Of a stretch of 64,000 nucleotides of DNA, positions 495 through 61,619 are shown piece after piece. The translations under genes and the position numbers were made by a program. Numbering within the stretch: position 1 is the stretch's first letter; each line of letters opens with the position of its first letter. Under the pieces are notes generated by a model. It was not told the origin of the DNA. It saw only the letters and a list, made by a program, of their open reading frames with translations, and made no database searches. Source of the stretch: Candidatus Roizmanbacteria bacterium RIFCSPLOWO2_01_FULL_41_22 (GTDB lineage Bacteria; Patescibacteriota; Microgenomatia; UBA1406; GWC2-37-13); NCBI GenBank assembly GCA_001789805.1, contig MGAR01000018.1:35981-99980 (forward strand). Direction: 5' to 3'.

Positions 495-1103
495 TTAAGG
501 TTGAGAAGTATATGCGTTTTGTCTTCGCAAATCTCTGATAGTCTGTAGAAACATAGCGGGTGAGATTGCTCCAAGAAACAGTAGTTCCCTCAGTTTGAGG
601 ATTCGTCCTTCCGGTGACTGGTAAAATTGTGTAATTATTTCGCGCCATCGGTTATCGTGGTCTATCAATATCCCTTCTGCCGTAAGACCGGTTATTCCGT
701 CAAGACCGGCTATTCGCGCATATACTAGTGCTCTTGGTAGGTGATAAGCGTTGGTTATAAAGGCCATGCTTTCGGGAGAATAATGTAATTCTTGGGCAAT
801 TATCGCCGAATATCTCATATTTGATTTAGTGCTGGTAGAATTTTGTTCAAGAATGAGTTGATCAGATGAGATTCCAGAAAAAATATTCAGAATATAATTT
901 TGCATCGTTTTCGCCTCCGATGGGCAGCCGCCACCAGAAAGGATTGCTATGAGAGTAAGTCCTGTAGCTATGGCAATACCCGTTGCTTTAGCCCTCATCT
1001 CTCCCGGCAAACTCAACTTATCTTGTCCTATCAATCTAGAACCTAAAGTAATAATTGCAGTATATATATCGGGCTTGATTTCAGGAGAGCGAAATTGTTC
1101 CAT
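495..1103 (-). CDS. DUF218/YdcF-like (SanA/ElyC-type) protein
   Basis: 202-aa ORF. ILSGGGCPSEAKTMQNYI ... LEQNSTSTKSNMRYS resembles the DUF218 core (GG..E[AS]..M..Y ... E..S.nT.eN). Confidence 0.55.
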   Translation of the reverse strand: MEQFRSPEIKPDIYTAIITLGSRLIGQDKLSLPGEMRAKATGIAIATGLTLIAILSGGGCPSEAKTMQNYILNIFSGISSDQLILEQNSTSTKSNMRYSAIIAQELHYSPESMAFITNAYHLPRALVYARIAGLDGITGLTAEGILIDHDNRWREIITQFYQSPEGRILKLRELLFLGAISPAMFLQTIRDLRRQNAYTSQP

Positions 1104-1207
1104 AAAGTAAAAAAATATATAGAAGGGCTATTTTAAGCTAAAAGCAGCGATAATGCAAAAGTAGCCAAAGTCATCAGTTGATCAAATAATAACTTTGGCA
1201 TTTTTTC

Positions 1208-1474
1208 TTACCGTAACAGTTGACTAATCAGGTGATAAATATCTTTTCGATGCCCAATTAATATGATATATATTTCATTAGTTTTATATTTAAAAAGAAT
1301 TCTGTATTGACCAATTCTGATCCTGGATATATTTTTATCACCCGTAAGTTTTTCAGTATTTTTAATAGTAAATGGACCTTTTAGTGATCTAATTTTTTTA
1401 GCGATGGCTATCTGGTCAATTTTAGGAATTTTTCTTAACTCTTTTTCAGCGCGGGGAGAGATGATAATTTTCAT
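1208..1474 (-). CDS. RelE/ParE-family type II toxin
   Basis: 88-aa basic ORF with a 4-nt start/stop overlap with the upstream 79-aa ORF. The tail IYIILIGHRKDIY is typical of RelE/ParE toxins. Confidence 0.75.
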   Translation of the reverse strand: MKIIISPRAEKELRKIPKIDQIAIAKKIRSLKGPFTIKNTEKLTGDKNISRIRIGQYRILFKYKTNEIYIILIGHRKDIYHLISQLLR

Positions 1475-1710
1475 AGATTAAGATCTTTTGCTATATCTTC
1501 AAAATCTCGACCCTTATTAAAATCAGTTGTGCTGGTAGTTTTGCGATCAACCAGATCTTCCATAAAGGAAGCCATTTTTTCATAAAGATCTTTCCCAATA
1601 AGATAAGCTTCAACTTTATTTCTATTTTCCACAGCAATAGGAAAATCAAGAGCGGATCGAATAGCTTTTGAGGGATTGATTTTTAGTTGTGATATTGATA
1701 TTGAGTTCAT
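1471..1710 (-). CDS. Phd/YefM-family antitoxin
   Basis: 79 aa. N-terminus SISQLKINPSKAIR..PIAVENRNKVEAYLI is Phd/YefM-like. Translationally coupled to the toxin ORF. Confidence 0.7.
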   Translation of the reverse strand: MNSISISQLKINPSKAIRSALDFPIAVENRNKVEAYLIGKDLYEKMASFMEDLVDRKTTSTTDFNKGRDFEDIAKDLNL

Positions 1711-4229: not shown

Positions 4230-4838
4230 TTAAGAAAGACTTATTTTTTCAAGAAATTGCTTTATATCATCATCTTTTTTTTCAAACCCTGTCATATACT
4301 TAATCTGTTCAGTGTAGTCAATGTCATCAAAATAACCAAGCTGTGTCCGAAATAATTTTTCATTAAATTCAGTTTTAAAAATACTGCTTGTTTTATCAGT
4401 TAAATCTTGAAATGAATATTTCTGAAGAATAAAATATAAATCGACGTAATCCTTCCACTTGGCTCGCCTCCCCAACGCAAATGCTTTCATGGCGCCGAGT
4501 GTAATAAGATCCGGTAATTTAAAATACCCATCAAATTCAGCAGACCTGTCAATTAAAAAAGGATAATGAAAAAAAGTAATTTTTACGTTATCTATAAGCA
4601 CTGTCAATTCCCCTTCACCTTGTGAAAAAGTTTGATCGATTTTATAACACGGTAATATTTTAGTTCTTATGTGCATCGGGTCAAAAGAATTATCAGAGAA
4701 AAGATCAAAGTCAATTGAGCGACGGTGTCCTAGATATAAAGCTATTGCAGTTCCACCCACAAGATAAAAATTCGCTGAAAATGATTTTACAAAAGGAAGA
4801 AGCTTTTCTTGATCGATATTCAATATGTTTTTATACAT
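4230..4838 (-). CDS. AbiEii/AbiGii-type nucleotidyltransferase (type IV toxin-like)
   Basis: FYLVGGTAIALYLGHRRSIDFDLFS matches the GGTA..L...R.S.D.D motif of DUF1814/AbiEii. ATG at 4838 is preferred over the track start at 4970 because it overlaps the upstream ORF stop as ATGTATAA. Confidence 0.7.
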   Translation of the reverse strand: MYKNILNIDQEKLLPFVKSFSANFYLVGGTAIALYLGHRRSIDFDLFSDNSFDPMHIRTKILPCYKIDQTFSQGEGELTVLIDNVKITFFHYPFLIDRSAEFDGYFKLPDLITLGAMKAFALGRRAKWKDYVDLYFILQKYSFQDLTDKTSSIFKTEFNEKLFRTQLGYFDDIDYTEQIKYMTGFEKKDDDIKQFLEKISLS

Positions 4839-5088
4839 GAGCGTTTTTAAAATAACGTAAAAAATAAGACTTAATTTCTGGAGGATAATTGGTTCTTTTA
4901 TTGGTAAGGGTTTTTTTAAAAATTTTGGCTGTTTTATCCTTACCTTTAATTTTGATAAATTTTTGCACATCTTCCCAATTGCCGTAGTTTAATACATGTT
5001 CTAAAACGGATTCATCTGAAAGCTTATCTGGATTTTTTACATACCAAGCAAGATAGGGCTTATTTTTGATAATTGCATTGACTGTCAT
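4831..5088 (-). CDS. Small partner protein of the AbiEii-like gene (putative antitoxin/adaptor)
   Basis: 85 aa from ATG 5088 (MTVNAIIKNKPYLAWYVKNPDKLSDESVLEHVLNYGNWEDVQKFIKIKG...). Has an 8-nt overlap with the downstream nucleotidyltransferase gene. The function is inferred from position only. Confidence 0.5.
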   Translation of the reverse strand: MTVNAIIKNKPYLAWYVKNPDKLSDESVLEHVLNYGNWEDVQKFIKIKGKDKTAKIFKKTLTNKRTNYPPEIKSYFLRYFKNAHV

Positions 5089-16860: not shown

Positions 16861-16875
16861 AAGAATATAGTTATA

Positions 16876-16985
16876 GTATACCCACCGTAGTTCAATTTGC
16901 AAAAGCGAAGTGAACGTACGGAGGGTTATGCCGCTGAAAGATGAAATGTTTTTTTTGCAATTTCATCTGAAAGCGGTATATAATG
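16876..16985 (+). repeat. Structured 5'-proximal element, copy A (candidate cis-regulatory RNA or mobile promoter)
   Basis: GTATACCCACCGTA-[hairpin]-TACGGAGGGTTATGCCGCTGAAAGATGAAAT...ATTTCATCTGAAAGCGGTATATAATG. Homologous to 38111-38210 and 50483-50614. Confidence 0.75.
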
Positions 16986-16992
16986 CTAGTTG

Positions 16993-17475
16993 ATGAAAAA
17001 TAACATTTTGAGTTTGTCGGAGCTCAATTTACTGACGAAATCGATCTTTGGTAAGAAAGTAGTTTTGGTCGGGGGTTGCTTTGATCTTTTGCATTGGGGC
17101 CATGTGACTTTTTTAGAAAAGGCAAAAAAACAAGGGGACATTTTGGTTGTGATGCTTGAGTCAGACGAATTTATCAAAAAACAAAAAAAAAGGAGACATG
17201 TCCATAATCAGCAGCAAAGAGCTCAGATCTTAAGAGAACTACGCGTTGTGGACTATGTCATACTATTACCCTATTTTTCAAAAGACAACGATTATTCTAA
17301 TTTGGTTGAGACGATCAAGCCCGACATTATCGCCGTCTCAGAAAAAGATCCAACCATAAGTAAAAAGAAAGAACAAGCAAATAAAATAAATGCCAAAATT
17401 GTTGTGGTGACACCATTATTAATTCGCTTCTCAAGTAGCGTTATTCTACCTCATGCAGACCTTTCTGGCGATTGA
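16993..17475 (+). CDS. Cytidylyl/adenylyltransferase-family protein (HxGH nucleotidyltransferase)
   Basis: VVLVGGCFDLLHWGHVTFLEKAKKQGD has the GxFDxxHxGH signature of the TagD/RfaE-II/RibL-type family. Confidence 0.7.
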   Translation: MKNNILSLSELNLLTKSIFGKKVVLVGGCFDLLHWGHVTFLEKAKKQGDILVVMLESDEFIKKQKKRRHVHNQQQRAQILRELRVVDYVILLPYFSKDNDYSNLVETIKPDIIAVSEKDPTISKKKEQANKINAKIVVVTPLLIRFSSSVILPHADLSGD

Positions 17476-38110: not shown

Positions 38111-38210
38111 GTATACGCACCGTATCCCGCCGAAGGCGGGAGTACGGAGCGTTATGCCGCTGAAAGATGGTGTATTTTTTTGCAATTTCATCTGAAAGCG
38201 GTATATAATG
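38111..38210 (+). repeat. Structured 5'-proximal element, copy B
   Basis: GTATACGCACCGTA-TCCCGCCGAAGGCGGGAG-TACGGAGCGTTATGCCGCTGAAAGATGG...ATTTCATCTGAAAGCGGTATATAATG. Confidence 0.75.
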
Positions 38211-39227: not shown

Positions 39228-40955
39228 ATGAAAGTCACCTATCATCATGAAATTAAATCCGGCCAAAAGCTTTCCATTGAAAGCCTAATCGATATTTTAA
39301 TGCGAAGTAGGCAAATTACCAATATCAATGCTTTTCTACATCCGCCCTCCCCTCTTTCTTTATCGCTGGTCGATTTTGGTTATGAAAAGGAATTTCGGAA
39401 AATTTTGCAGTTGCTAAAAAAGATAAGAGAAGAGAAAAAAACCATTGTGGTTTATACCGATTATGATGCCGATGGAATCACCGGCGGAAGCATTCTCTGG
39501 GAGACACTGCATTTGTTGGGTTTTTCCGTTATGCCCTATGTGCCCCACCGGAAACTTGAAGGCTATGGCTTTTCTATAAAGGGCATTGACGCGGTTATTG
39601 CCAAATATCACCCGGCACTTATCATTAGCGTTGATCATGGGATAACCGCCGCCAAACAGATTGCCTATGCTAAAACCCAAGGTATCAAAGTGATTGTTAC
39701 CGACCATCATTTGAAGCAAGAGGGGCAGGTCCCCAAAGAAACCGAGGCGATTTTTCATATCCCGCAGCTGTCCGGATCGGGTGTCGCCTATTTTTTTGCC
39801 AAAGAAATTTATGAAAATCTCAAATCTCAAATCTCAAATTTCAAATTGTTGGAATATAACTTCACGGTTGATTATCTGGCTCTGGCCTCAATTGGTACCA
39901 TCGCGGATTTAGTACCTCTGGTTGGTCCTTCTCGTAGTGTGGTGAAGGCAGGACTAGCTTCTTTTCCCAACGTTAAACGGTATGGATTAAAATATATCTT
40001 GAAAGAGGCAAAAATTATCCATAGACCAGTTACACCTTATGAGGTAGGCTTCATCATTGCCCCAAGAATTAATGCGGTGGGGAGATTGGAGCATGCCATT
40101 GATGCACTTCGTCTACTTTGTACCACCAACGAAGCTCGTGCTTTGAAATTGGCTCAGCAGGTGGGTTTGGCTAATACCAAAAGGCAGGATCTAGTGAAAA
40201 AGGCAGTAGAGGAAGCTCTAGCAATAGTTGAAAAACTTAAAAAAAAGGGCTCTTTACCCAAGATTCTCATTCTCCATTCTCCAGATTGGCACGAGGGAAT
40301 TATTGGTTTAATCGCTTCGAAGTTGGTTGAAGCTTATTACCGGCCGGCCATTGTGCTAACCGAAGGTAATGGCGAGCTTAAGGGTTCGGCCCGCTCGATA
40401 AAAGCCTTTCACATAACCGATTTTTTTGCTTCATTGAAAAAGTATCTGCTAAGCTTCGGCGGCCATCGGCAGGCCGGTGGTCTGACCGTCAAAAAAAGCC
40501 AGTTAGCCGATTTTATTGCTGAAGCGACTAATAAGGCCTCCAAGCTTATTAAAGACTCGGATCTGGAAAAAGTAATCGAGGTGGATATAAAAATACCGGT
40601 GCAGATTGTGGATATGCGGCTAGCCCGCGAGATTGAGAAACTAAATCCTTTTGGAATCGGCAATCCACAACCTTCATTTGTCAGCCAAGTGGAAGTCGTC
40701 GGCGCCCAGTTGTTTGGTAAAAAAAACGATCATTTGAAAATAATCGTCAAGTCAAGCGATACGACTACGCTTGAGATGATTGCTTTTAACCGGGCTGCGG
40801 ATTACGTTTCCCTTTCCCGCGGGAAAAAATTAGATATAGTTTATAACCTTAATATCAACCGTTGGAATGGGAGAGAAAGCTTAAGAGGCAGAGTGATTGA
40901 ACTTATCACATCTTCTCAACAGTCTGAATACCAAGAAGATACAGGCCGTTTTTAA
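39228..40955 (+). CDS. recJ: Single-stranded-DNA-specific exonuclease RecJ
   Basis: DHH motifs: DYDADGITG, VDHGI, VTDHH. DHHA1 motif GGHRQAGG. Confidence 0.9.
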   Translation: MKVTYHHEIKSGQKLSIESLIDILMRSRQITNINAFLHPPSPLSLSLVDFGYEKEFRKILQLLKKIREEKKTIVVYTDYDADGITGGSILWETLHLLGFSVMPYVPHRKLEGYGFSIKGIDAVIAKYHPALIISVDHGITAAKQIAYAKTQGIKVIVTDHHLKQEGQVPKETEAIFHIPQLSGSGVAYFFAKEIYENLKSQISNFKLLEYNFTVDYLALASIGTIADLVPLVGPSRSVVKAGLASFPNVKRYGLKYILKEAKIIHRPVTPYEVGFIIAPRINAVGRLEHAIDALRLLCTTNEARALKLAQQVGLANTKRQDLVKKAVEEALAIVEKLKKKGSLPKILILHSPDWHEGIIGLIASKLVEAYYRPAIVLTEGNGELKGSARSIKAFHITDFFASLKKYLLSFGGHRQAGGLTVKKSQLADFIAEATNKASKLIKDSDLEKVIEVDIKIPVQIVDMRLAREIEKLNPFGIGNPQPSFVSQVEVVGAQLFGKKNDHLKIIVKSSDTTTLEMIAFNRAADYVSLSRGKKLDIVYNLNINRWNGRESLRGRVIELITSSQQSEYQEDTGRF

Positions 40956-42633
40956 TAACTTGAGCCACTGCGGTAGTCAGGGCTAGCCGGAAGTTTTTGG
41001 TATCTTGGTCGGCTTTTAAGATCGGATGTTTTTGGTAAAACAGATTGTACTGCTGAGCCAGAGTGAAAAGGTAATTGCATAGTAGGTTAGGAGCCATGTT
41101 TACTGCTGCCGATTCGACTATGGAAGGGTATTTTTCTAACATGCGCATTAACTCTAGTTCTTCCGCCTGGTAGTCTATTCTTGGTAACTTATTTTTTGGT
41201 GAAAAGTTACTTTTACTGATTACTGATCGACAGCGGACATAAGTATATTGCATATAAGGACCTGCATTTCCTTGCATATTGAGGATCTCATCCCAGTCAA
41301 ATAGAATGTCCATGTTTGCGCTTCTTTTTAAATCATTCCATTTTAAAGCACCAATGCCAATAATATTAGCATTGTCATGATATGACTGGCTTACTGTTGC
41401 ATCAGTTTGATGTTGTTTAGAAAGACTTTCGGCTCTTTTTTTCGCTTCTTCCAATACTTCTTCTAACCAAATAACATTTCCCTTTCTGGTGGACATTTTC
41501 TTATCTTTAAAGCGATACATACCATGTTTCACATGCACACGTTGATTGTCTTTTACCCAACCTAACATTTTTTCTGCTTCAAATAATTGCTGAAAATACA
41601 AACTTTGTTCTGCTCCAACTTCGTTAATAATCAGCACGTCAGCAGAGTAGTGAGAGTTGGTGAGACGGAATTTATCTGTTGCCAAATCTCTGGTGGAATA
41701 GAGAGTAGCCCCGTCATCTTTTAAAATCATTAGAGGCGGGTATTTGTCCTTGGGGAAGGCGATAATTTGCGCTCCTTTACTTTTTGTTAATAATTTTTTA
41801 TTCTGTAGTTCTTTGATAATAAAGTCCATCTTATCTTCAAAAAAAGATTCTCCATATCCTTTGCCGTCATTTTCTGTAAATGTTACTTGCAGTTTGTCGT
41901 AGATTTCATTAAATTCTTTCCAAGACCAATCAATACATTTTTGCCAAAGTATTCTTGCTTCCTCATTTCCATCCTCAAGTTTTTTAAACCAGATTTTTCC
42001 TTGTTCTTCAATTTCAGGATTTTTTTCGGCTTCCTTGTGAAATTTCACATATAACCTTACCAGTTCTTTGACTGGTTGTTGCATTTTTTCAATCTTTCCT
42101 ATATTCCCCCAAGTTTTGATAGCATAAATCTGCTTACCAAACTGTGTCCCCCAGTCGCCTAAGTGATTATCGCGGAAAACAGTCCAGCCTGCGGCCTCAA
42201 GTAGATTGGCAATTGCATCACCGATGATGGTTGAGCGCAAATGTCCAATAGTAAACGGTTTAGCAATATTTGGTGAAGAATATTCGACAATGATTTTTTT
42301 CCCTCGGGTGGTCTCACTTTTGCCATAATTATTTATATTGGAGAGGATTTGAATTAAATTTTTACTAAGTGTTTCTTTCGTTAGCCAGAAGTTAATAAAT
42401 CCTGGTTTAACTACTTCGACTTTTTCAATAATCTCGTCTTTGGGAATTTGTTTGGCGATTTCTTCGGCCATCTGCAGCGGGTTTTTCTTCAGCTCTTTGG
42501 CCAACCGCATGGCGATGTTGGTGGTATAGTCGCCGAATTGAGGATTATCAGGTGACTGGATATGGACAGTTGAACGTGTAGATATTTTGTTAACAGCAGC
42601 GGTAATTATTGCTTGAATTTGATCTTTGATCAT
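40906..42633 (-). CDS. argS: Arginyl-tRNA synthetase
   Basis: SSPNIAKPFTIGHLRS (HIGH region), MSTRKG (KMSK region) and a DALR C-domain ending in ...VEKM. Confidence 0.92.
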   Translation of the reverse strand: MIKDQIQAIITAAVNKISTRSTVHIQSPDNPQFGDYTTNIAMRLAKELKKNPLQMAEEIAKQIPKDEIIEKVEVVKPGFINFWLTKETLSKNLIQILSNINNYGKSETTRGKKIIVEYSSPNIAKPFTIGHLRSTIIGDAIANLLEAAGWTVFRDNHLGDWGTQFGKQIYAIKTWGNIGKIEKMQQPVKELVRLYVKFHKEAEKNPEIEEQGKIWFKKLEDGNEEARILWQKCIDWSWKEFNEIYDKLQVTFTENDGKGYGESFFEDKMDFIIKELQNKKLLTKSKGAQIIAFPKDKYPPLMILKDDGATLYSTRDLATDKFRLTNSHYSADVLIINEVGAEQSLYFQQLFEAEKMLGWVKDNQRVHVKHGMYRFKDKKMSTRKGNVIWLEEVLEEAKKRAESLSKQHQTDATVSQSYHDNANIIGIGALKWNDLKRSANMDILFDWDEILNMQGNAGPYMQYTYVRCRSVISKSNFSPKNKLPRIDYQAEELELMRMLEKYPSIVESAAVNMAPNLLCNYLFTLAQQYNLFYQKHPILKADQDTKNFRLALTTAVAQVIKNGLYLLGIQTVEKM

Positions 42634-42657: not shown

Positions 42658-45315
42658 TTAGATAGGATATAAGTGCATGTTCTGACGTGAAATTCGACCT
42701 GTGGATTTATCTAGGGCTTCTTGAAAATTTTTACCAATACTCATAGTTTCCCCGGTGCTTTTCATGAGTGGTCCCAGTTTAGTTGAAACACCTGGCAGTT
42801 TGTCAAAGGAGAATATCGGTGTTTTTACTGCTACATGGTTTGGTACGACCTTGCTGACATTATGATCCAATTTTTCTCCTAAAATGATTTTGGTCGCAAA
42901 CTCTGGTAAAGAGATTCCCAAGCATTTGCTTAAAAAAGGGATCGTCCGCGATGCCCGCGGATTAATCTCTAGGACATAAATTAGATTATTTTTTATGGCA
43001 TATTGAATATTGCCAAGACCAATAATTTGAAAAGCTTCGCTGATTTTGTTGGTCATAAAGATAAGTTTTTCTTGAATTGATCTACTTAGATTTTGAGGAG
43101 GATAGACACATCGACTGTCACCAGAGTGGATGCCTGCGGGTTCCAGTTGTTCTAGAATATAACTAATCGTATTTTCACCGTCACTAATAAAATCAACGTC
43201 AACCTCGATGGCATTTGCTAAAAACTCGTCAATCAAAATAGGATTATTAAAATAAAAGGCTGATAACTTTTCTAAATAACCATAAAGCTGTTTTTTATTT
43301 TGGATTATTTTCATCCCTTCGCCGCCAAGGACAAATGATGGTCTGACCAGTAAGGGATATGCTAAAGTTTTTAACTTATTTTGAATATCTTGTTTGGAAT
43401 AAATGATTTTCCATTTTGGCATTTTTATACCCAATTTTTTCATCATTTTTCCTGTCAGTTCACGATTTTCCGCCAGTTCAATGGAAGCGGAGGAAGTCCC
43501 TAATATTTTTACCTTACTTTCTTCCAGTTGCTTGGCCAGATTGATCGCTGTTTGACCTCCAAATTGGGCGATAATTCCAAGAAGATTGTTTTGTTCATTT
43601 TCAATCACTTTTTTGACAAAATTGAAAGTTAAAGGTTCAAGATAAAGTCGATCAGAAATGGAGTAATCAGTGCTGACCGTTTCCGGATTATTATTGATGA
43701 TGATTGTTTGTATACCTTTCTCTTTAAGTGCTTTCACTGCATGGACTGTCATATAATCAAATTCTATTCCTTGTCCGATACTGATTGGTCCAGCTCCGAT
43801 TATTATTACTTTTGGACATGCTAGTGGAATAGCCTCATTCTCCTCTCCTTGTGTCGAATAATAATAAGGCGTTTTAGCCTCAAATTCTCCGGCACAGGTA
43901 TCAACCATTTTATAGTTATTCAAGCTTTTCTCAATTTGGTCATAGTTGTGAGTTAAATTATTTAGCTTGGAAATAAACCAGGGATTTATATGTGTCAAAT
44001 TACTGATTTCTTTAATGGATAATTCCTGCTGAATAGCTTGGAAAATGTGTTTCAATCGCGAAGTTGTGGACTTTTTTAGTACCGGTCTTATATCTCTAAT
44101 TTTTTCTTTGTTTTCGAAAATATTTTCTTTTAAATCTAAACTTTTGACGGCTTTGTACATTGCTTCACCAAAATTTCTTCCGATACTCATCACTTCTCCG
44201 GTACTTTTCATGGTGATTCCTATGCCCAAATCCATTTCGGGAAATTTATCGCTTGGCCAACAGGGGATTTTGACGACAATATAATCCAAAGCCGGTTCAA
44301 AAAAAGCAGTTTTCCCGGTAATGTTATTAGTGAGTTCTGGTAGAGTTTTACCTAGCGCGATTTTTGTGGCAACTCTAGCTATGGGATAACCAGTGGCCTT
44401 GGAGGCGAGTGCGGAACTGCGAGAGAGTCGGGGATTAACTTCTATCACAAAATATTGGCCCGTGTGATAATTTAGAGCAAACTGAACATTACAACTACCG
44501 ACGATATTGAGCGCCTCGACTATTTTTAATGCCGAATTTCTAAATACTTGATGGTCATCATCAGATAATGTTTGGGCCGGGGCGACCACTATTGATTCGC
44601 CAGTGTGTACACCCATTGGATCAACATTTTCCATATTACAAACAATAATCTTATTGCCGGCGGCGTCTCTGATCACTTCATATTCAAATTCTCCCCAGCC
44701 CAAGACGCTTTTTTCTAACAATACTTGTTTTGTCGGACTTAACAACAAACTAGTTGATAATTTTTTTTTAAGTTCAGTAAGGTTGGTGGCATATCCGCTT
44801 CCCAACCCGCCTAAAGTGTAAGCACAACGATAAATAATCGGAAAACCAATTTTTTGAACAAAAGCAAGACCTTCTTCTATCGAGGGAATTGCTTGACTTG
44901 GCAGGACAGGTTCCTTTATCTGCTCCATTAACTGCTTGAATCTTCCCCGATCCTCTCCAAAAGATATGGCTTTTATATCTGTTCCTAAGACTTTCACCTG
45001 ATATTTTTTGAGTACTCCTTGCTTATCAAGCTGAGTGGCTAAATTCAGAGCAGTTTGTCCACCAACAGTCGCTATTAGACCCGCAGGCTTTTCTATCGCA
45101 ATAATTTGCTCTAGAACAGGTATCGTCAACGGTTCAATATAAACGATATCGGCTACTTGACGATCGGTTTGAATGGTAGCCGGATTGGAATTAACGATGA
45201 TAGACTGATAACCTTCTTCGCGGAGGGCAAGTAACGCCTGTGTTCCTGAATAATCAAATTCTGCGGCTTGTCCGATAACAATCGGTCCCGAACCGATAAT
45301 TAACACTTTTTTCAC
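42658..45315 (-). CDS. carB: Carbamoyl-phosphate synthase large subunit, short form without C-terminal allosteric domain
   Basis: Two ATP-grasp halves, each starting G(S/A)GP(I)xIGQ(A/G)xEFDY. Ends about 30 aa after KSTGETMSIG. 885 aa. Confidence 0.88.
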   Translation of the reverse strand: MKKVLIIGSGPIVIGQAAEFDYSGTQALLALREEGYQSIIVNSNPATIQTDRQVADIVYIEPLTIPVLEQIIAIEKPAGLIATVGGQTALNLATQLDKQGVLKKYQVKVLGTDIKAISFGEDRGRFKQLMEQIKEPVLPSQAIPSIEEGLAFVQKIGFPIIYRCAYTLGGLGSGYATNLTELKKKLSTSLLLSPTKQVLLEKSVLGWGEFEYEVIRDAAGNKIIVCNMENVDPMGVHTGESIVVAPAQTLSDDDHQVFRNSALKIVEALNIVGSCNVQFALNYHTGQYFVIEVNPRLSRSSALASKATGYPIARVATKIALGKTLPELTNNITGKTAFFEPALDYIVVKIPCWPSDKFPEMDLGIGITMKSTGEVMSIGRNFGEAMYKAVKSLDLKENIFENKEKIRDIRPVLKKSTTSRLKHIFQAIQQELSIKEISNLTHINPWFISKLNNLTHNYDQIEKSLNNYKMVDTCAGEFEAKTPYYYSTQGEENEAIPLACPKVIIIGAGPISIGQGIEFDYMTVHAVKALKEKGIQTIIINNNPETVSTDYSISDRLYLEPLTFNFVKKVIENEQNNLLGIIAQFGGQTAINLAKQLEESKVKILGTSSASIELAENRELTGKMMKKLGIKMPKWKIIYSKQDIQNKLKTLAYPLLVRPSFVLGGEGMKIIQNKKQLYGYLEKLSAFYFNNPILIDEFLANAIEVDVDFISDGENTISYILEQLEPAGIHSGDSRCVYPPQNLSRSIQEKLIFMTNKISEAFQIIGLGNIQYAIKNNLIYVLEINPRASRTIPFLSKCLGISLPEFATKIILGEKLDHNVSKVVPNHVAVKTPIFSFDKLPGVSTKLGPLMKSTGETMSIGKNFQEALDKSTGRISRQNMHLYPI

Positions 45316-46337
45316 AGTAATGCTTTAAATTGTTTAAATAAGAACGTGGTGTCATGGGGACCGGGATTGGCTTCTGGATGAAACTGGACGGAAAAAAAAG
45401 GTTTATTTCTATGAATAAATCCTTCAACTGTACCATCATTGATATTAATAAAAAGTGTCTCCCAATTTTTTGATAGCGACTCGGCTTTTACAGCATAGCC
45501 ATGATTTTGTGAAGTAAAAAATGCTTTTTGACTCTTGATATCCAGTACCGGGTGATTTAAACCTCGATGGCCAAATTTAAGCTTGTATGTCTCACCTCCG
45601 TCAGCCAATGCCATGAGCTGATGACCCAAACAGATCCCGAAAATTGGGATAGTAGTTTTTAAGAGTGCTCTAATTGTCGAAATGGCATAAGGGAGAGCAA
45701 CAGGATCACCTGGACCGTTTGATAAGATAATCCCTTGAGGGTTGTCACTAAGGATTTCTTTAGCTTTGACTGTCGATGGGTAAATCACCACTTTTAAATT
45801 TTCCTTGATTAATTCCTGGACAATACTCTCTTTTGCTCCATAGTCAATTAATGCGACGGTATTTCCCCCTTTTTCGTTGATGATTATTTTTTTTTGGGTA
45901 CTGATTGCTTTGACGAAATCTCTCCCCTCTTGTTCATAGACGGAAAGGACAGCCGGAATACATCCATGATTGCGTAAAAAATTTACGATGGATCGGGTAT
46001 CGATTCCAGCTATGCCGCCAATATGATGAGCCGCTAACAGATTTTCCAGCGAATCATGAGCATCTCTATGATAATGGTCGTTATTGAGTTCAGAAACGAC
46101 GATGGCTACAGGATAAATTTTTGGCGACTCTCCCCATTTACGGCTGATGCCATAATTTCCGATCAGTGGATAAGTAAAGGTCAAGATCTGTCCAGCGTAT
46201 GAGGGGTCGGTAATGGCCTCCATATATCCGGTCATAGCGGTATTAAAAACCAGTTCTCCAAAAAAACAGCCTGTGGCACCGAAACCTTTACCACGATAAA
46301 TCTGATTATTATTGAGAATTAAGATCGCTTTTTTCAT
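45312..46337 (-). CDS. carA: Carbamoyl-phosphate synthase small (glutaminase) subunit
   Basis: From MKKAILIL; GICLGHQ catalytic Cys and the HPE triad end. Has a 4-nt overlap with carB. Confidence 0.88.
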   Translation of the reverse strand: MKKAILILNNNQIYRGKGFGATGCFFGELVFNTAMTGYMEAITDPSYAGQILTFTYPLIGNYGISRKWGESPKIYPVAIVVSELNNDHYHRDAHDSLENLLAAHHIGGIAGIDTRSIVNFLRNHGCIPAVLSVYEQEGRDFVKAISTQKKIIINEKGGNTVALIDYGAKESIVQELIKENLKVVIYPSTVKAKEILSDNPQGIILSNGPGDPVALPYAISTIRALLKTTIPIFGICLGHQLMALADGGETYKLKFGHRGLNHPVLDIKSQKAFFTSQNHGYAVKAESLSKNWETLFININDGTVEGFIHRNKPFFSVQFHPEANPGPHDTTFLFKQFKALL

Positions 46338-46400
46338 GCAATCAATAAAAATTGATAATTTAAAACAAATCTTTGGTGAAATGAATAACAATAAGTACAA

Positions 46401-47342
46401 CTATAACTCCTTCGAATTTCCTTGAAATGTCAGTAAATAAGCTAATAGTGCCTTTTGGGCATGGAGACGATTTTCTGCTTGTTGGAAAACCACAGATTGG
46501 GGACCATCAATCACCTCACTGGCGACTTCATTTCCGCGGTAGGCAGGCAAGTCATGCATAAAGATAGCATCCGGTTTTGCCAGTTTCATCAATGATCGTG
46601 TGACTTGATAAGGCTTAAAGATAGACAAACGTTTTTCTTTTTCCTTTTCATCACCCATACTCACCCAAGTATCTGTATAAACAACATCAGCTTGTTTTAC
46701 AGCTTTTTCGACGTCAGAGGTTAGGGCAATCTTTGGTGAATATTTTTTGGCTTTTTTTACTATTTCCTGATTCAACCAGAAACCTTGAGGAGAAGCACAG
46801 GTAAATTGCATACCAAGCATGGCAGCCCCCAGACATAAAGAATGGGCAACATTATTTTCTCCGTCACCAATAAAGACGATTTTTAAATTGGATAATTCCT
46901 TTTTTACCTCAAGAATCGTCAACAGATCAGATAAGGTTTGACAAGGATGCTCCATATCTGATAGCCCATTAATCACCGGGACAGCCGAATATGCCGCTAG
47001 TTCTTCAACCGTTGTGTGTTTGAATACCCGTGCCATAATGATATTGGTCATCCCGGAGGCAACTTTCGCTACATCAGAAATTTTCTCGCGGACACCTAAA
47101 CCGATATCCGAAGGCGCCAAGTAGATAGCATGGCCACCCAGTTGAGTCATCGCCGTTTCAAACGATAACCGGGTGCGTAAACTGGGTTTTTCAAAAATCA
47201 TTGACATGGTTTGATTCTGTAACAGCGGTTTATTGGCATGTTTTGTTTTCAGTTCTTTTTTTGTTTTAAGGGCAATTTTGAAAACAGTTTTTAACTCTGA
47301 AATAGAAAGATCGGTGATGGAAAGAAAATGTTTTGTTTTCAT
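46401..47342 (-). CDS. argF: Ornithine carbamoyltransferase
   Basis: SLRTR, HPCQ and DTWVSMG motifs are present. HDLP replaces the usual HCLP. Confidence 0.8.
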   Translation of the reverse strand: MKTKHFLSITDLSISELKTVFKIALKTKKELKTKHANKPLLQNQTMSMIFEKPSLRTRLSFETAMTQLGGHAIYLAPSDIGLGVREKISDVAKVASGMTNIIMARVFKHTTVEELAAYSAVPVINGLSDMEHPCQTLSDLLTILEVKKELSNLKIVFIGDGENNVAHSLCLGAAMLGMQFTCASPQGFWLNQEIVKKAKKYSPKIALTSDVEKAVKQADVVYTDTWVSMGDEKEKEKRLSIFKPYQVTRSLMKLAKPDAIFMHDLPAYRGNEVASEVIDGPQSVVFQQAENRLHAQKALLAYLLTFQGNSKEL

Positions 47343-47345
47343 AGT

Positions 47346-48596
47346 TTATTTTGATTGTATGTTGTTGGCCAGTTTCATTTGCAGGCTGTAAATCTCGATA
47401 AAACCGGCACTTGCATTAACGTTAAACTTATAACCCTCATTATTGTTAAAGGATGTATGACTTAAGCCGTAAGGTGACTGCATTGCAACGATTTCTACTT
47501 TACCTTTGTGCGGTTTCACAGTTACTTTACCAGTAACTTTTTTATTAACCCAATCGTTAAAAGCATTAATAGCCTGCATCGCCGGATCATACCAGAGAGC
47601 TCCATAACACATATATCCCCATTTAATATCCAGCATGGACTTCAATTCATTGAGGTTGCGAGTAGAGACATATTGTTCTAAGGCTTTATGAGCTTTAATG
47701 ATGACATGAGCCGCCGGTAGTTCATACACTCCGCCGTTTTTTAGTCCAACCAAACGGTCTTCAAACATATGCACGACACCAACACCGTGTTTACCGGCAA
47801 TTTTATTCAAATGGATAATAATCTCCGCTAGTTTCAGTTGTTTATTATTTAAAGCAACTGGAATCCCTTCATGGAAATCGAGTGTTACAAGTTCTTCATC
47901 GTTGGGTGCATTTTTTGCTAACGTATAAGTCGTTAAAAATTTTTCGATCGGTGAAATGACATCCGGCTCTTCGATCTCTCCTCCTTCCCAGGTCATTCCC
48001 CACATGTTATCATCCACACTGTAGGGAAAATCCTTAGTTGTTGGAACCGGTATGCCGTTGTCAGCGGCATATTCTATCTCTTCGTTGCGGTCCATATTCC
48101 ATTCGCGAACCGGAGCAATAATTTTCAGTGATGGATCATGAGTTAAAATGTAGCCTTCAATACGCACCTGATCGTTGCCTTTACCGGTACAGCCATGAGC
48201 AATACAATCGGCTTTTTCAAGTTTTGCTATTTCGACGGCTTTTTTTGCTAAAATCACCCGGCCCATTGGCGTAGAAAGATGGTAGTCTCCTTGGTAACAA
48301 GCGTTAGCTTTAATCCCCTTAGCGAGAATATTTTCAGCAAATTCGTCTTTTGCATCCAGGACAATTGCTTTAAGTGCGCCCAGTTTCAATGCTTTTTGTT
48401 TGATTTTTTCCAAGTCGTCATGTTGTTGTCCGATATCTAACGTCAAAGCGATTATTTCCGCTTGATACTGATTTTTTATCCATTTCAGCATTACACTGGT
48501 ATCTAGTCCACCTGAATAAAGTAAAAGAATTTTTTTGACCTCATTTTTTTTCGCTTCGTAAGAAGCGACTTTTTGATAAGCAGTAGTTTTTTTCAT
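47346..48596 (-). CDS. argG: Argininosuccinate synthase
   Basis: LLYSGGLDTS P-loop and GCTGKGNDQVR. Confidence 0.9.
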   Translation of the reverse strand: MKKTTAYQKVASYEAKKNEVKKILLLYSGGLDTSVMLKWIKNQYQAEIIALTLDIGQQHDDLEKIKQKALKLGALKAIVLDAKDEFAENILAKGIKANACYQGDYHLSTPMGRVILAKKAVEIAKLEKADCIAHGCTGKGNDQVRIEGYILTHDPSLKIIAPVREWNMDRNEEIEYAADNGIPVPTTKDFPYSVDDNMWGMTWEGGEIEEPDVISPIEKFLTTYTLAKNAPNDEELVTLDFHEGIPVALNNKQLKLAEIIIHLNKIAGKHGVGVVHMFEDRLVGLKNGGVYELPAAHVIIKAHKALEQYVSTRNLNELKSMLDIKWGYMCYGALWYDPAMQAINAFNDWVNKKVTGKVTVKPHKGKVEIVAMQSPYGLSHTSFNNNEGYKFNVNASAGFIEIYSLQMKLANNIQSK

Positions 48597-48671
48597 AGTA
48601 TTTATATTTTATAAAAAATTATCACAAAAATATCAAAAATGCAAGTAATAATCATTAAATATATATCATTT

Positions 48672-50192
48672 TTATTCTTTTTGTACGAAATTATTAATAA
48701 TCGTGTTTTTAGCGATGAAAGAGTGTAACAATTGCAGCGCTTTATCTTTCTTATTTTTTTTATCAGTTAGCCACTTGTTGTAATTCAGAAGTTGTTTTTT
48801 TAATAATTTCAGACTGATTTTCATCGCCTCTTTGCCCGGACTGCCAAAAGAGGTAATTAGTTTAATCATCAGTTTGGGCTGTTGAAATTCATTTATTTTT
48901 TTCGCCGTAATTGATACATTGATATTATTCTCAACTAAAGCCTTCTTTAATGCGGCACATGTTACTTGCTGTGAATTTGGAGAATAGGCAATTGCCTTTT
49001 CGACAATACTTTTCGCTTTTCTAAAAGGAAGATGGTAGTTGGCTATCAATTGTTCAAGTAAGATTGTCGTTCCGATAAAACCAACATGACACCATTTCTC
49101 CATGGTTTTTTTATCAAGCTTCATCGTTGCTAATAAACCCTTCATGATTCCTGGCGCTGTTTTACATTCATCAACAATTTGGATAATGGCATATTTTGTC
49201 CATTGGGAATCACGGTTATAACCGATGAAGTTGGCTGTCCCCTGCTGTAATAAACCAGTCATTAAACCGGCGATAAAGGCGGTTTTTCCTTTAATGACTT
49301 CTAAACTGTCCGGATTCTTTTTTTGGGGCATAATAGAGCTGCCGGTTGAATAAAGATCATTTAATTTAATCATTCCAAATTCCGGAGTGGAAAAAACGAT
49401 CAATGTTTGGGAAATAAGAGATAAATGGTTCATGAAATTGAAAATAGCAAAAGCTAAATCTGCTTCTGCTTCCCAACGGTTGGTGATGGTATCTAAAGAG
49501 TTATTCTCCGGTTCGTCAAAAGCAAAAAGCAGCGCCGTATAAAATTGATCTATCGGAAAAGAAGTCCCATACCCTGCGCTATTGCCTAAAGGGTTAAGGT
49601 TGTGAAGTGTATACCAGTGGGTAAATCGTTTTAAGTCCCGATTTAACATGGCGGTAAACGATAAAAGGATATGGCCAAAGGTAGTAACCATGGCATGTTG
49701 ATAATGCGTAAAACCGGGAATGACCGTTGCTTTATATTTACCGGCTAAAGATAATAGCGTTTCGTTTAAATCAATGATTTGTTTAACAAAAAGTAACACC
49801 TGGTCACGTAAAAAGAGCCGCGTGTCGGTGTTACTTTGATCGTTCCGGGAGCGGGCGGTGTGCAACATGCCGACTTTATCCATGCCGTAATGTTCAATTA
49901 ACCATGATTCAATATTGGTATGGACATCTTCTTTTTGCGGATCAAGCAGATAATGCTTATCTTGGATAAGTTGTTCGATTTCCTGTAGGCCCGTGAGAAT
50001 CACAATCATATTTTCCTTGGTGATAATGTTTTGTTTACCAAGCATCAAACAGTGCACCTTGTTTACCCAGATGTCATAGGGTAAAAGGTGATAATCGGCA
50101 GGTACCGCGATCTTGACATCATTGCCTGAGGTAAAATCAATAATGTTTTGTTTTGGTTGAACTATAAAGTTATTTCCCCAAAGTTTATTCAT
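48672..50192 (-). CDS. argH: Argininosuccinate lyase
   Basis: Fumarate-lyase family: TARSRNDQ and GSSIMPQKKNPD signature. Confidence 0.88.
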   Translation of the reverse strand: MNKLWGNNFIVQPKQNIIDFTSGNDVKIAVPADYHLLPYDIWVNKVHCLMLGKQNIITKENMIVILTGLQEIEQLIQDKHYLLDPQKEDVHTNIESWLIEHYGMDKVGMLHTARSRNDQSNTDTRLFLRDQVLLFVKQIIDLNETLLSLAGKYKATVIPGFTHYQHAMVTTFGHILLSFTAMLNRDLKRFTHWYTLHNLNPLGNSAGYGTSFPIDQFYTALLFAFDEPENNSLDTITNRWEAEADLAFAIFNFMNHLSLISQTLIVFSTPEFGMIKLNDLYSTGSSIMPQKKNPDSLEVIKGKTAFIAGLMTGLLQQGTANFIGYNRDSQWTKYAIIQIVDECKTAPGIMKGLLATMKLDKKTMEKWCHVGFIGTTILLEQLIANYHLPFRKAKSIVEKAIAYSPNSQQVTCAALKKALVENNINVSITAKKINEFQQPKLMIKLITSFGSPGKEAMKISLKLLKKQLLNYNKWLTDKKNKKDKALQLLHSFIAKNTIINNFVQKE

Positions 50193-50386: not shown

Positions 50387-50482
50387 GGCTTTCTTGATAT
50401 TTGTAATAAATATGCTAGGATGATTTTCTTCATTCAATACGCCAGACTTGCAATAAGTCCTGTTTTAGCCTAGAATAGCATT

Positions 50483-50614
50483 GTTTACCCACCGTAGTTT
50501 AGTCCCGCCAAAGGCAGGGGGTAAATTTACGGAGGGTTATGCCAAGTCAGACTTGGTTATGCCGTTGAAAGATGAAGTATTTTTTTGCAGTTTCATCTGA
50601 AGGCGGTATGTCTT
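50483..50614 (+). repeat. Structured 5'-proximal element, copy C (with extra hairpin)
   Basis: GTTTACCCACCGTA-[hairpin]-TACGGAGGGTTATGCC-AAGTCAGACTTGGTTATGCC-GTTGAAAGATGAAG...TTTCATCTGAAGGCGGTATG. Confidence 0.7.
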
Positions 50615-60700: not shown

Positions 60701-61516
60701 CTATTCTAGCGGACTTTTAATGTTTTTGAGTTTCGGATTGGCCACATGCGTATATATTTGAGTTGATCTAATATTTTGATGACCAAGCAACTCTTGGACA
60801 TACCGTACGTCAACTCCGTTTTCCAAAAGATGCGTGGCAAAGCTATGGCGAAGGCTATGAAAGGTTGCGTCTTTATTAATCTCGACTTTTCTTACTGCTT
60901 TTTCAAAAACCTTTTGCGCAGTCCTGGTGGTTAGTTTTCCACCCCTTTCGCTGGCAAAAACAAAGTCGTCGATTTTCTTGCCGGCAATCAAATTTTTAAG
61001 CCCGTCAACCATTTTTTCCGGCAAAACACTGATTCTATCTTTTTGCCCTTTTGCCTGTTTGATATGAACGGTTAACTCCAACAGGTCAACATCTTTGACT
61101 TTCAGGGAAACAGCTTCGCTAACCCGAAGGCCAGCTCCATAGGAAAGCGATAATAATAGTTTATGTTTCGAATTTTGTATTGAGCCTAAAATACTATCAA
61201 TTTCATTTCTGGATAATACAACAGGCAGACTACTTGATTTTTTTGCAGATCGAATATCAATTTTCGAGGTTGTTCTGATGACTTCCTGATAAAAAAACTT
61301 GATAGCGCTTAAAAATATATTTCTGCTCTGGGGAGAAGTCCCTTTTTGCTCACGTTGTAATAAAAAGTTGCGAATATTTTCTTGATTAAGTATTTCTAAG
61401 TTGTCTTTCTTAAAGACTAAATATTCTTGCAAGCCATAAAGGTAACTTTTTACTGTTTTTGGGCTATAATTTCTGATTTTTAATTCTCGCTCTGTTTGCT
61501 CTAATTGTTTTCTCAT
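60701..61516 (-). CDS. IntI-like tyrosine recombinase without the integron-specific insertion
   Basis: R (GLRVSE), K (KGQKDR), HxxR (HSLRHSFATH), H (LLGH) and Y (IYTHV) are all present, with a tail of ...IKSPLE. Start is ATG 61516 or the alternative at 61573. Confidence 0.8.
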   Translation of the reverse strand: MRKQLEQTERELKIRNYSPKTVKSYLYGLQEYLVFKKDNLEILNQENIRNFLLQREQKGTSPQSRNIFLSAIKFFYQEVIRTTSKIDIRSAKKSSSLPVVLSRNEIDSILGSIQNSKHKLLLSLSYGAGLRVSEAVSLKVKDVDLLELTVHIKQAKGQKDRISVLPEKMVDGLKNLIAGKKIDDFVFASERGGKLTTRTAQKVFEKAVRKVEINKDATFHSLRHSFATHLLENGVDVRYVQELLGHQNIRSTQIYTHVANPKLKNIKSPLE

Positions 61517-61619
61517 TATTGTTTTGAAATATGTTAAAATACAGTCAGTTTTTATATGATTTAAGATTAACATAATATGGTATATTATACAACATTGTAA
61601 TTATATTACGAATACTATT

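Follow-up and report, generated by a model that had tools for sequence, protein, structure and literature searches.

A palindromic repeat, found in three copies (A, B and C) within a stretch of 64,000 nt from the uncultivated groundwater bacterium Candidatus Roizmanbacteria bacterium RIFCSPLOWO2_01_FULL_41_22 (contig MGAR01000018.1, positions 35,981–99,980; hereafter the window), probably belongs to a family of dispersed elements similar to MITEs (small transposable elements with inverted repeats) or Correia repeats, which occurs in a few genomes of the Microgenomates group of the candidate phyla radiation (CPR) and forms hybrid promoters. The assignment to MITE- or REP-type (repetitive extragenic palindrome) repeats is based on dispersal with identical copies, a patchy distribution, exact empty sites, discrete length classes, nested modules and terminal inverted repeats combined with TA at the ends. 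The copies had originally been predicted as a structured element always abutting a start codon, which implied a dedicated regulatory RNA; this implication was not upheld, since the element is absent from orthologous sites, some copies lie away from start codons and identical copies occupy different loci.

Copies of the repeat and element-free sites

The three copies were present at the predicted places in the same orientation, all on the plus strand. Copy A (16877–16980, 104 bp) extends from TATACC to GGTATA. Copy B (38112–38205, 94 bp) has a GC-rich inner hairpin TCCCGCCGAAGGCGGGA and, as had been predicted, a C:G to G:C swap in helix 1 with the A/A mismatch kept. Copy C (50484–50610, 127 bp) is the most diverged of the window copies, with TTTACC at its left end, TTGCAG instead of TTGCAA, GGTATG at its right end and an extra hairpin CCAAGTCAGACTTGG (50542–50556, plus strand) with a duplicated GGTTATGCC on its flanks. 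The location of the element in the original prediction was right, albeit the true ends are approximately TATACC...GGTATA, and the TAAT(G) included at the 3' end of copies A and B is flanking promoter sequence. Helix 1 of copy A pairs ACCCACCGTA with TACGGAGGGT, apart from an A/A mismatch (16880–16926, plus strand); it encloses the variable hairpin GTTCAATTTGC...GAAGTGAAC and is followed by helix 2 (TATGCCGCT-GAA-AGATGAAAT / ATTTCATCT-GAA-AGCGGTATA; 16927–16980, plus strand), the core palindromic module, which stands alone as a 59-bp element in L046. Each conserved half had exactly three matches in the window at up to 3 mismatches, against a chance expectation of 0.13 and 0.03, and a covariance model run with filters off matched only copies A, B and C there, at 87–119 bits.

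Comparison with orthologous sites of relatives, which covers presence and absence between species only, showed that the element is missing where the neighbouring genes are conserved. The syntenic relative SRR11567540_10516 (56–72% protein identity) had the same gene order at all three loci and lacked the element at each of them, and in L070 it was absent at two of the window loci. The empty site at locus A was exact in the relative L091, with ...TATAG followed directly by TATAATGCTA: the relative reads ...ctttatatagTATAATgctactacATG, the window ...gttatag[TATACC...GCGGTA]TATAATgctagttgATG, and after removal of TATACC...GCGGTA 15 nt across the junction were identical, indicating that TATAAT was resident at locus A and that the element sits exactly at its 5' edge. 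The inserted segment can be read as 16877–16978 or, equivalently, as 16879–16980, and the TA found at each junction may be a target duplication of 2 bp or may belong to the element. At locus B, the element-free relative L069 had TTGACA-N17-TATAAT-7 nt-ATG before RmuC; at locus C, the relatives L069 and L070, also without the element, had cTTGnAA-N17-TAGAATAG (TTGnAA-N17-TAGAAT) at 12–14 nt from the ATG of the PEGA/SH3 gene. No element was matched by nhmmer and covariance-model searches in ~62 kb of relatives, and nhmmer --max and an unfiltered covariance model yielded no diverged or structure-only relatives in the window and the same ~62 kb. A clean empty site was not obtained for the copy in L042, whose region is too diverged from its 79% relative.

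When 10 kb were added to the window at either side, another copy of the same genome came to light ~13 kb beyond the left end (copy D, L144/L145 14089–14178), giving four copies within ~83 kb of one genome. Copy D is partly degraded, with two helix-2 pairs broken and the 3' GAA changed to GCA. In total, 15 distinct copies were found, all in Microgenomates-type CPR contexts; these counts are lower bounds, because the metagenome scan missed contig Ga0209541_10001711, which has an exact pattern-matching copy A. A scan of ~186,000 species genomes with the helix-2 core pattern gave 45 matches, 42 of them by chance in unrelated taxa, and the sole other metagenome-assembled genome with real copies was CAYJVA01 (L010, L021, L042). 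The metagenome scan gave 13 stretches, including two chance matches and several real ones repeating a single locus; additional copies came from Ga0209541/2 and C687J35174, samples that also contain the window organism. The closest homologues of the window belong to Roizmanbacteria, Woesebacteria and Microgenomates. Viral contigs (three patterns) and plasmids and phages (blastn) produced no real match. Similarity between loci at the DNA level was limited to the element itself, with 83–96% identity, and L050 and L051 have identical 121-nt elements within different flanks. CAYJVA01 is titled 'uncultured Gammaproteobacteria bacterium', and its PBP2 is 79% identical to Patescibacteria and 50–57% to Roizmanbacteria proteins; its taxonomic label looks wrong.

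Strain sampling covered ~28 contigs from other samples, every one of which carries the copies, with copy B present in eight strains. Just two variants were seen among them. The strain variant of copy A in L089 has a single-base change of the -35 box (window 16955–16960) from TTGCAA to TTGAAA, nearer to the TTGACA consensus. A variant of copy B (L060 2902–2949) combines a B-like 5' arm with a 3' arm near the family consensus (GGATGGT) and a different loop, and has two helix-1 pairs broken; this mosaic could result from gene conversion between copies or from chimeric metagenome assembly.

The anatomy of the family is modular, with no open reading frame (ORF) and a total length from 59 to ~130 bp, inside the range of ~50–500 bp that prokaryotic MITEs span. 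The simplest form, in L046, is a bare palindrome TATACCGCTGAAAGATG-loop-CATCTGAAAGCGGTATA, the two arms of which match at 14 of 17 positions as a terminal inverted repeat. The core of the element is an imperfect inverted repeat TATACCGCT-GAA-AGATG...CATCT-GAA-AGCGGTATA, and the GAA/GAA 'internal loop', correctly described as invariant (12 of 12 aligned copies), is a CTGAAAG direct repeat set within the inverted repeat. In the long forms, the helix-1 module interrupts the left arm after TATACC and before GCT, and a second TATGCC or TATACC comes behind it; copy C, L050 and L051 have an added hairpin between the duplicated GGTTATGCC, the nested hairpins having short direct repeats (TATACC/TATGCC and GGTTATGCC, respectively) at their flanks. 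The inner hairpin was confirmed to be variable in sequence; it is directly preceded by GTAG in A, C, L021, L042, L057 and L010b whereas the B-type copies have GTAT there. The internal position of a small GC-rich hairpin, TCCCGCC-N4-GGCGGGA, varies among the copies, and in L010b this hairpin stands in place of the whole left arm of helix 2, with TTGCAA...GCGGTATA and TTGCAA...CTGAAAGCGGTATA kept. As for independent spreading, the small hairpin was hardly found outside the element. TA is present at both junctions in nearly all copies; copy C has TT and TG at these positions.

Gene starts, predicted hybrid promoters and genomic context

A Shine-Dalgarno-like motif was recognized in only 1 of the 57 window genes (57 ORFs of at least 120 aa), and strong -10 boxes, i.e., those matching 5 or 6 of the 6 positions, pile up 6–12 nt before the start codons, with 8 at a gap of 6 nt versus ~1 per position elsewhere. 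The promoters of RmuC and PEGA/SH3 in the element-free relatives are arranged in the same way. Judged from this pattern, mRNAs of the host lineage would be leaderless or have very short leaders. With -10 boxes so close to the start codons and Shine-Dalgarno sites nearly absent, any promoter insertion in such a genome will 'abut' a start codon. The original prediction that the element always does so was true inside the window and failed for the family, 6 of the 15 copies being situated elsewhere, including copy D between convergent genes.

Copy A forms a predicted hybrid sigma-70-type promoter (16955–16984, plus strand), TTGCAA (16955–16960), an 18-nt spacer (sigma-70-type promoters have 16–18 nt) and TATAAT (16979–16984), which matches the consensus at 10 of 12 positions. 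Its -35 box lies within the element, the last four bases of the -10 box belong to the resident flank, and the ATG follows 8 nt further on, at 16993, a distance of the leaderless type that is usual in this genome. The left end of copy A gives rise to another promoter-like site, read on the minus strand (16875–16902): TTGCAA in the variable hairpin, 16 nt and TATACT, the latter made of the element end plus flank, 14 nt upstream of the divergent DUF4012 gene (ATG 16860, minus strand). Without the element, the divergent start codons at locus A would be just ~30 nt apart. The hybrid promoter at copy B (38180–38209, plus strand) has the same arrangement of TTGCAA (38180–38185), 18 nt and TATAAT (38204–38209), followed by GTG start codons at 38210 and 38216, i.e., after 0 or 6 nt, the second position corresponding to the modal 6-nt gap. 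If the best promoter match is used, transcription of both copies would begin only downstream of the hairpins.

At locus C the ancestral promoter of the PEGA/SH3 gene (50448–50476, plus strand), TTGCAA (50448–50453), 17 nt and TAGAAT (50471–50476), is intact upstream of the element, which starts ~8 nt past this promoter and ends 4–5 nt short of the ATG (50615). Copy C should thus be transcribed as a ~130-nt 5' leader from a predicted start at ~50483, and the boxes that it carries itself have decayed, to TTGCAG (-35) and TATGTC (-10).

The mechanism proposed for these arrangements starts from the right arm, in which a -35 box (TTGCAA) faces outwards and the terminal TATA makes up half of a -10 box. 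A copy landing at or next to a resident TATAAT (A and B) would replace the old -35 box and spacer and re-create a promoter with an 18-nt spacer, and copies inserted past a promoter (C) or within 3' regions (D, L042) would simply be co-transcribed as hairpin RNA. The element presumably moves, or has moved, by transposition at TA with a trans-acting transposase, and the hybrid promoters are expected to fire. The bias towards promoters could come either from a target preference for TA-rich -10 regions or from the survival of those hits that restored a -35 box. As for mobility, both a DDE-type MITE with TA duplication and an HUH-type single-stranded-DNA element are possible.

Among the 15 copies, nine are positioned within 50 nt upstream of a co-oriented ORF and six are not, copy D being one of the latter. 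It is located between convergent genes, directly after a stop codon (TAA followed by TATACC) and before a bidirectional terminator common to groEL. The copies in L042, L046 and L010b face the 3' ends of genes and are placed between convergent genes, or probably so, the L050 copy is 485 nt away from the next ORF, and L021 holds the sixth of these copies. In L052, only 15 nt separate the end of a terminator from the element, too little for an upstream promoter. Where the neighbouring genes are co-directional, all five copies have the sense orientation, and copies A, B and C are all on the strand with positive GC skew. The downstream genes were confirmed to be functionally unrelated: a cytidylyltransferase-like gene (A), RmuC (B) and PEGA/SH3 (C) in the window, and DUF5656, glycosyltransferase, class IV aminotransferase, nitroreductase and others next to the remaining copies. 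Pfam scans of 10 ORFs beside other copies revealed no transposase. The Xer-type tyrosine recombinases (window 60701–61573, L010 4908–5879) look like housekeeping genes.

Several other features were noticed around the copies. A cluster of arginine and carbamoyl-phosphate genes (window 42658–50192, minus strand), consisting of carB-like (885 aa), carA, ornithine/aspartate carbamoyltransferase, argininosuccinate synthase and a lyase, lies between argS and the PEGA/SH3 gene. In the syntenic relatives L069 and L070, a single NUDIX gene takes its place, and the cluster, with copy C at its edge, may be an acquired island. In L042, ~230 nt of further GC-rich palindromes, e.g., cctgaagccgatgttacatcggctgaagg and cctgcctgcc...ggcaggcagg, are found downstream of the element copy (~1060–1295, minus strand); they are absent from the 79% relative L092 and may represent another repeat family. 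The convergent recJ-like (39228–40955, plus strand) and argS (40906–42633, minus strand) genes have 50 nt in common at the 3' side. An AbiEii-like nucleotidyltransferase toxin domain is encoded at window positions 4230–4970 (minus strand), and a PhdYeFM/ParE toxin-antitoxin pair, recognized from the L144 gene calls, at ~1208–1700 (minus strand) near the window start.

Pairing changes and rival explanations

The predicted folds showed the helices described originally, with helix 1 (ACCCaCCGTA/TACGGaGGGT) round the variable hairpin and helix 2 behind it. The RNA fold z-scores for the plus strand were -9.7 (A), -6.5 (B) and -5.8 (C); the minus strand and the single-stranded DNA of either strand folded nearly as well (z from -5 to -8), so the fold by itself is no sign of RNA. 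A scan of the window at the Rfam gathering thresholds detected tRNA-Tyr alone and no ribozyme or riboswitch, and E-value scans of copies A and C produced chance-level miRNA and snoRNA matches only, in agreement with the earlier statement that the element was not recognized as a named riboswitch or RNA motif. A role as a terminator was rejected, as neither helix is followed by a T-run on either strand.

The pairing changes differed between the two helices. In helix 1, double-sided changes were found in 2 of the 9 pairs, with 96% of the cells paired, and 6 of 500 shuffles reached the observed score; the second of these changes is C:G to U:A in L010b and L021, with a U.G intermediate in L042. In helix 2, none of the 18 pairs had a double-sided change: 11 of 12 aligned copies have the same 26-nt 3' arm, and the inner part of the 5' arm varies uncompensated, pointing to a constraint on sequence (-35 box plus spacer, or a transposase site) and not on pairing. 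The three extra G.U pairs of copy C in helix 2 were present as predicted, albeit their interpretation as compatible only with RNA holds only if single-stranded DNA is ignored, where the G.T wobble is tolerated too. The variant states of the core stems comprised 5 of G.U type versus 1 of A.C type (binomial p ~0.11), 5 other mismatches and 2 compensated pairs, and addition of the poorly conserved inner stem extension brought them to ~8 of G.U type versus 1 of A.C type (binomial p ~0.02). This lean towards G.U is a modest hint of a constraint on the single-stranded plus strand, which could act on RNA or on top-strand DNA. Overall, the covariation is thin, and the copies are near-identical with little divergence.

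Several observations weigh against a mobile repeat that donates promoters. The internal promoter of copy C is misplaced relative to the ATG, and the completed -10 box is poor in several copies (TATACC, TATAGA, TATAAA). Presence/absence polymorphism within the species was not seen, all sampled strains having all three window copies. In the long forms, no more than 6 bp (TATACC/GGTATA) make up the terminal inverted repeat, and target duplication is ambiguous, the empty site at locus A fitting a TA duplication and no duplication equally. Neither a transposase domain (Pfam, ~50 window ORFs) nor an autonomous parent element was found in the window and the loci of other copies. Finally, the G.U lean and the two compensated helix-1 pairs are not predicted by a model in which the element is a purely double-stranded promoter cassette.

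It is possible, if doubtful, that the main retained effect of the repeat is post-transcriptional, with co-transcribed hairpins acting as RNase III targets or mRNA stabilizers as in the Correia, ERIC and BOX repeats; for copy C, a cut at the helix-2 base might restore an almost leaderless 5' end. This would be consistent with the position of copy C in a 5' leader and of D and L042 in 3' regions in sense orientation, with helix 2 being an irregular ~22-bp duplex which ends 5 nt before the ATG of copy C, with the substitutions of copy C keeping the pairing by G.U while its -35 and -10 boxes degrade, and with the precedent in Correia elements (PMC2649163). On the other hand, it is copy D, situated in a 3' region predicted to be transcribed, whose helix-2 pairs are broken and whose loop is changed, and the numbers are too small for statistics. 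Mobilization of the same repeat as single-stranded DNA by an HUH (Y1) enzyme, as a REP/RAYT-type or IS200/IS605-derived palindromic element instead of a cut-and-paste MITE with TA duplication, seems rather unlikely, and it is kept alive because of the strand-specific asymmetry of G.T versus A.C, the conserved hairpin mismatches (A/A, GAA/GAA) and the GTAG 5' of the inner hairpin in 6 copies, which we take to resemble the REP signature. The lack of an unambiguous target duplication, the nested TCCCGCC-N4-GGCGGGA at differing internal positions and the location of all window copies on the strand with positive GC skew also fit it, while no Y1 transposase or RAYT was seen in the window and the loci of other copies, the left flanks share no clear target tetranucleotide, and a DDE-type MITE would account for both the inverted repeat of the ends (TATACCGCT...AGCGGTATA) and the TA at either junction. 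A broader proposal, that the plus strand is selected as a single strand, either as an RNA module cleaved at the base of helix 2 or as the top-strand DNA of a new HUH-mobilized element targeting the melted -10 region, we regard as unlikely. For the co-transcribed copies, especially C, effects on RNA stability or processing are plausible.

A dedicated cis-acting structured RNA on the plus strand (a riboswitch, leader or protein-binding motif) controlling the abutting gene is quite improbable. Its strong folds are matched by single-stranded DNA, and its two compensated pairs are confined to helix 1, helix 2 showing no double-sided covariation and an asymmetric conservation of its arms. The predominance of G.U among the one-sided stem changes on the plus strand (5 versus 1, or 8 versus 1 with the inner extension), the invariant GAA/GAA loop, the sense orientation of five of five copies between co-directional genes and the placement of copy C downstream of a conserved promoter, where it should be transcribed, all speak for such an RNA. 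Yet it is not kept at the orthologous loci of relatives, the downstream genes are unrelated, identical copies occupy different loci, copies occur in 3' regions and between convergent genes, the terminator in L052 leaves no space for an upstream promoter, and neither Rfam nor the covariance model provided a family match or diverged structure-only relatives. Even less can be said for a non-mobile operator or promoter cassette, i.e., a palindromic site of a global transcription factor kept at a regulon of promoters, which is extremely improbable: the inverted repeat does overlap the region from -35 to -10 and contains the CTGAAAG direct repeat, but copies are found outside promoters, the element is missing from orthologous promoters, the whole-element identity of 83–100% reaches far past a binding site, and the downstream genes share no function.

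Relation to known repeats and significance

Hybrid promoters are also created by the ends of insertion sequences (IS) of the IS1, IS2 and IS10 types, which have outward -35 boxes. The present repeat is similar in that, at A and B, its -35 box is suitably spaced from a -10 box already resident there, the TATAAT being kept in element-free relatives, but differs in being a non-coding element of ~100 bp and not an autonomous IS. In the REP/RAYT system, GTAG is followed by a palindrome of 20–40 bp, often in inverted pairs, and the RAYT gene is flanked by REPs. With REP/BIME, REPINs with RAYT and IS200/IS605-derived elements our repeat shares imperfect palindromes with conserved mismatches and GTAG 5' of a hairpin in several copies, as well as a mosaic or nested organization, strand-asymmetric wobble and no clear target duplication. 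In contrast to these elements, most of its copies are promoter-proximal and not at gene 3' ends, it has terminal inverted repeats, and no RAYT/Y1 gene was present in the sequence examined.

The ERIC repeats of enterobacteria and the BOX/RUP repeats of pneumococcus are transcribed structured intergenic repeats, BOX being modular with varying module numbers, and have orientation-dependent effects on neighbours. The present elements resemble them as structured intergenic repeats of ~100–130 bp, modular as BOX, but have no sequence relation to them, and ERIC and BOX/RUP are not known to complete -10 boxes next to start codons. Both are listed in a review of such repeats (PMC10969869). Compared to riboswitches and leader RNAs, the repeat is likewise structured, located upstream of coding sequences on the sense strand and provided with some compensated pairs, but it has no Rfam match, no orthologous conservation, unrelated downstream genes, near-identical copies and little covariation.

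The closest analogy was found with the Correia elements (CREE/NEMIS) of Neisseria, inverted-repeat elements in length classes of ~70, 105 and 155 bp, which use a TA target and are mostly situated 5' of genes (PMC2649163; PMC10969869). Here, too, short non-coding inverted repeats fall into discrete length classes (~59, 95–105 and 121–130 bp), the ends begin with TATA, insertion would be at TA and is mostly 5' of genes, and a promoter is possible at either end. In the 'Black promoter' of CREE, the element contributes a -35 box and a partial -10 box, which is completed by the flank (PMC2649163), much as is predicted for the right arm of the present repeat. Co-transcription as hairpin RNA, described for CREE (PMC2649163; PMC10969869), is in our case predicted. 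Membership in the Correia/CREE family itself was rejected: the sequences are unrelated, CREE ends reading TATAG[CT]GGATTA... and the present ends TATACCGCTGAAAGATG and TATACC(C/G)..., with no similarity to the terminal repeat TATAG[CT]GGATTAA... of PMC2649163. Furthermore, the host belongs to CPR/Microgenomates, no integration host factor site was recognized and, unlike CREE with a core between 26-bp inverted repeats, the present repeat consists of nested hairpin modules. The original prediction had allowed for the element being part of a known IS or MITE; a MITE is essentially what the evidence favours, albeit not a known one.

The element is best classed as a new family within a familiar category, that of palindromic repeats donating promoters, and its interest lies in the CPR host and in a gene architecture that is free of Shine-Dalgarno sites and has promoters abutting start codons. 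Genomes of CPR/Patescibacteria are small and usually described as poor in repeats and regulation, and in the searchable literature neither MITE- or REP-type elements nor the promoter architecture were found to be described for CPR. Such a repeat family can mislead the discovery of RNA motifs, because it looks like a conserved 5' structure, and can fragment metagenomic assemblies. A by-product of the analysis is a Microgenomates genome shown to be nearly without Shine-Dalgarno sites and to have -10 boxes 6–12 nt from start codons. If RNA cleavage at the base of helix 2 proves true, an insertion in a 5' leader, such as copy C, would still yield a near-leaderless mRNA, as needed by an organism free of Shine-Dalgarno sites, and if the single-stranded plus strand is indeed under selection, the element would surpass a merely passive Correia-like MITE and connect mobile hairpins with leaderless expression in CPR bacteria. 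For the preferred interpretation as a dispersed promoter-forming repeat, the locus would show in a concrete case how promoters of a CPR genome are rewired by a small repeat.

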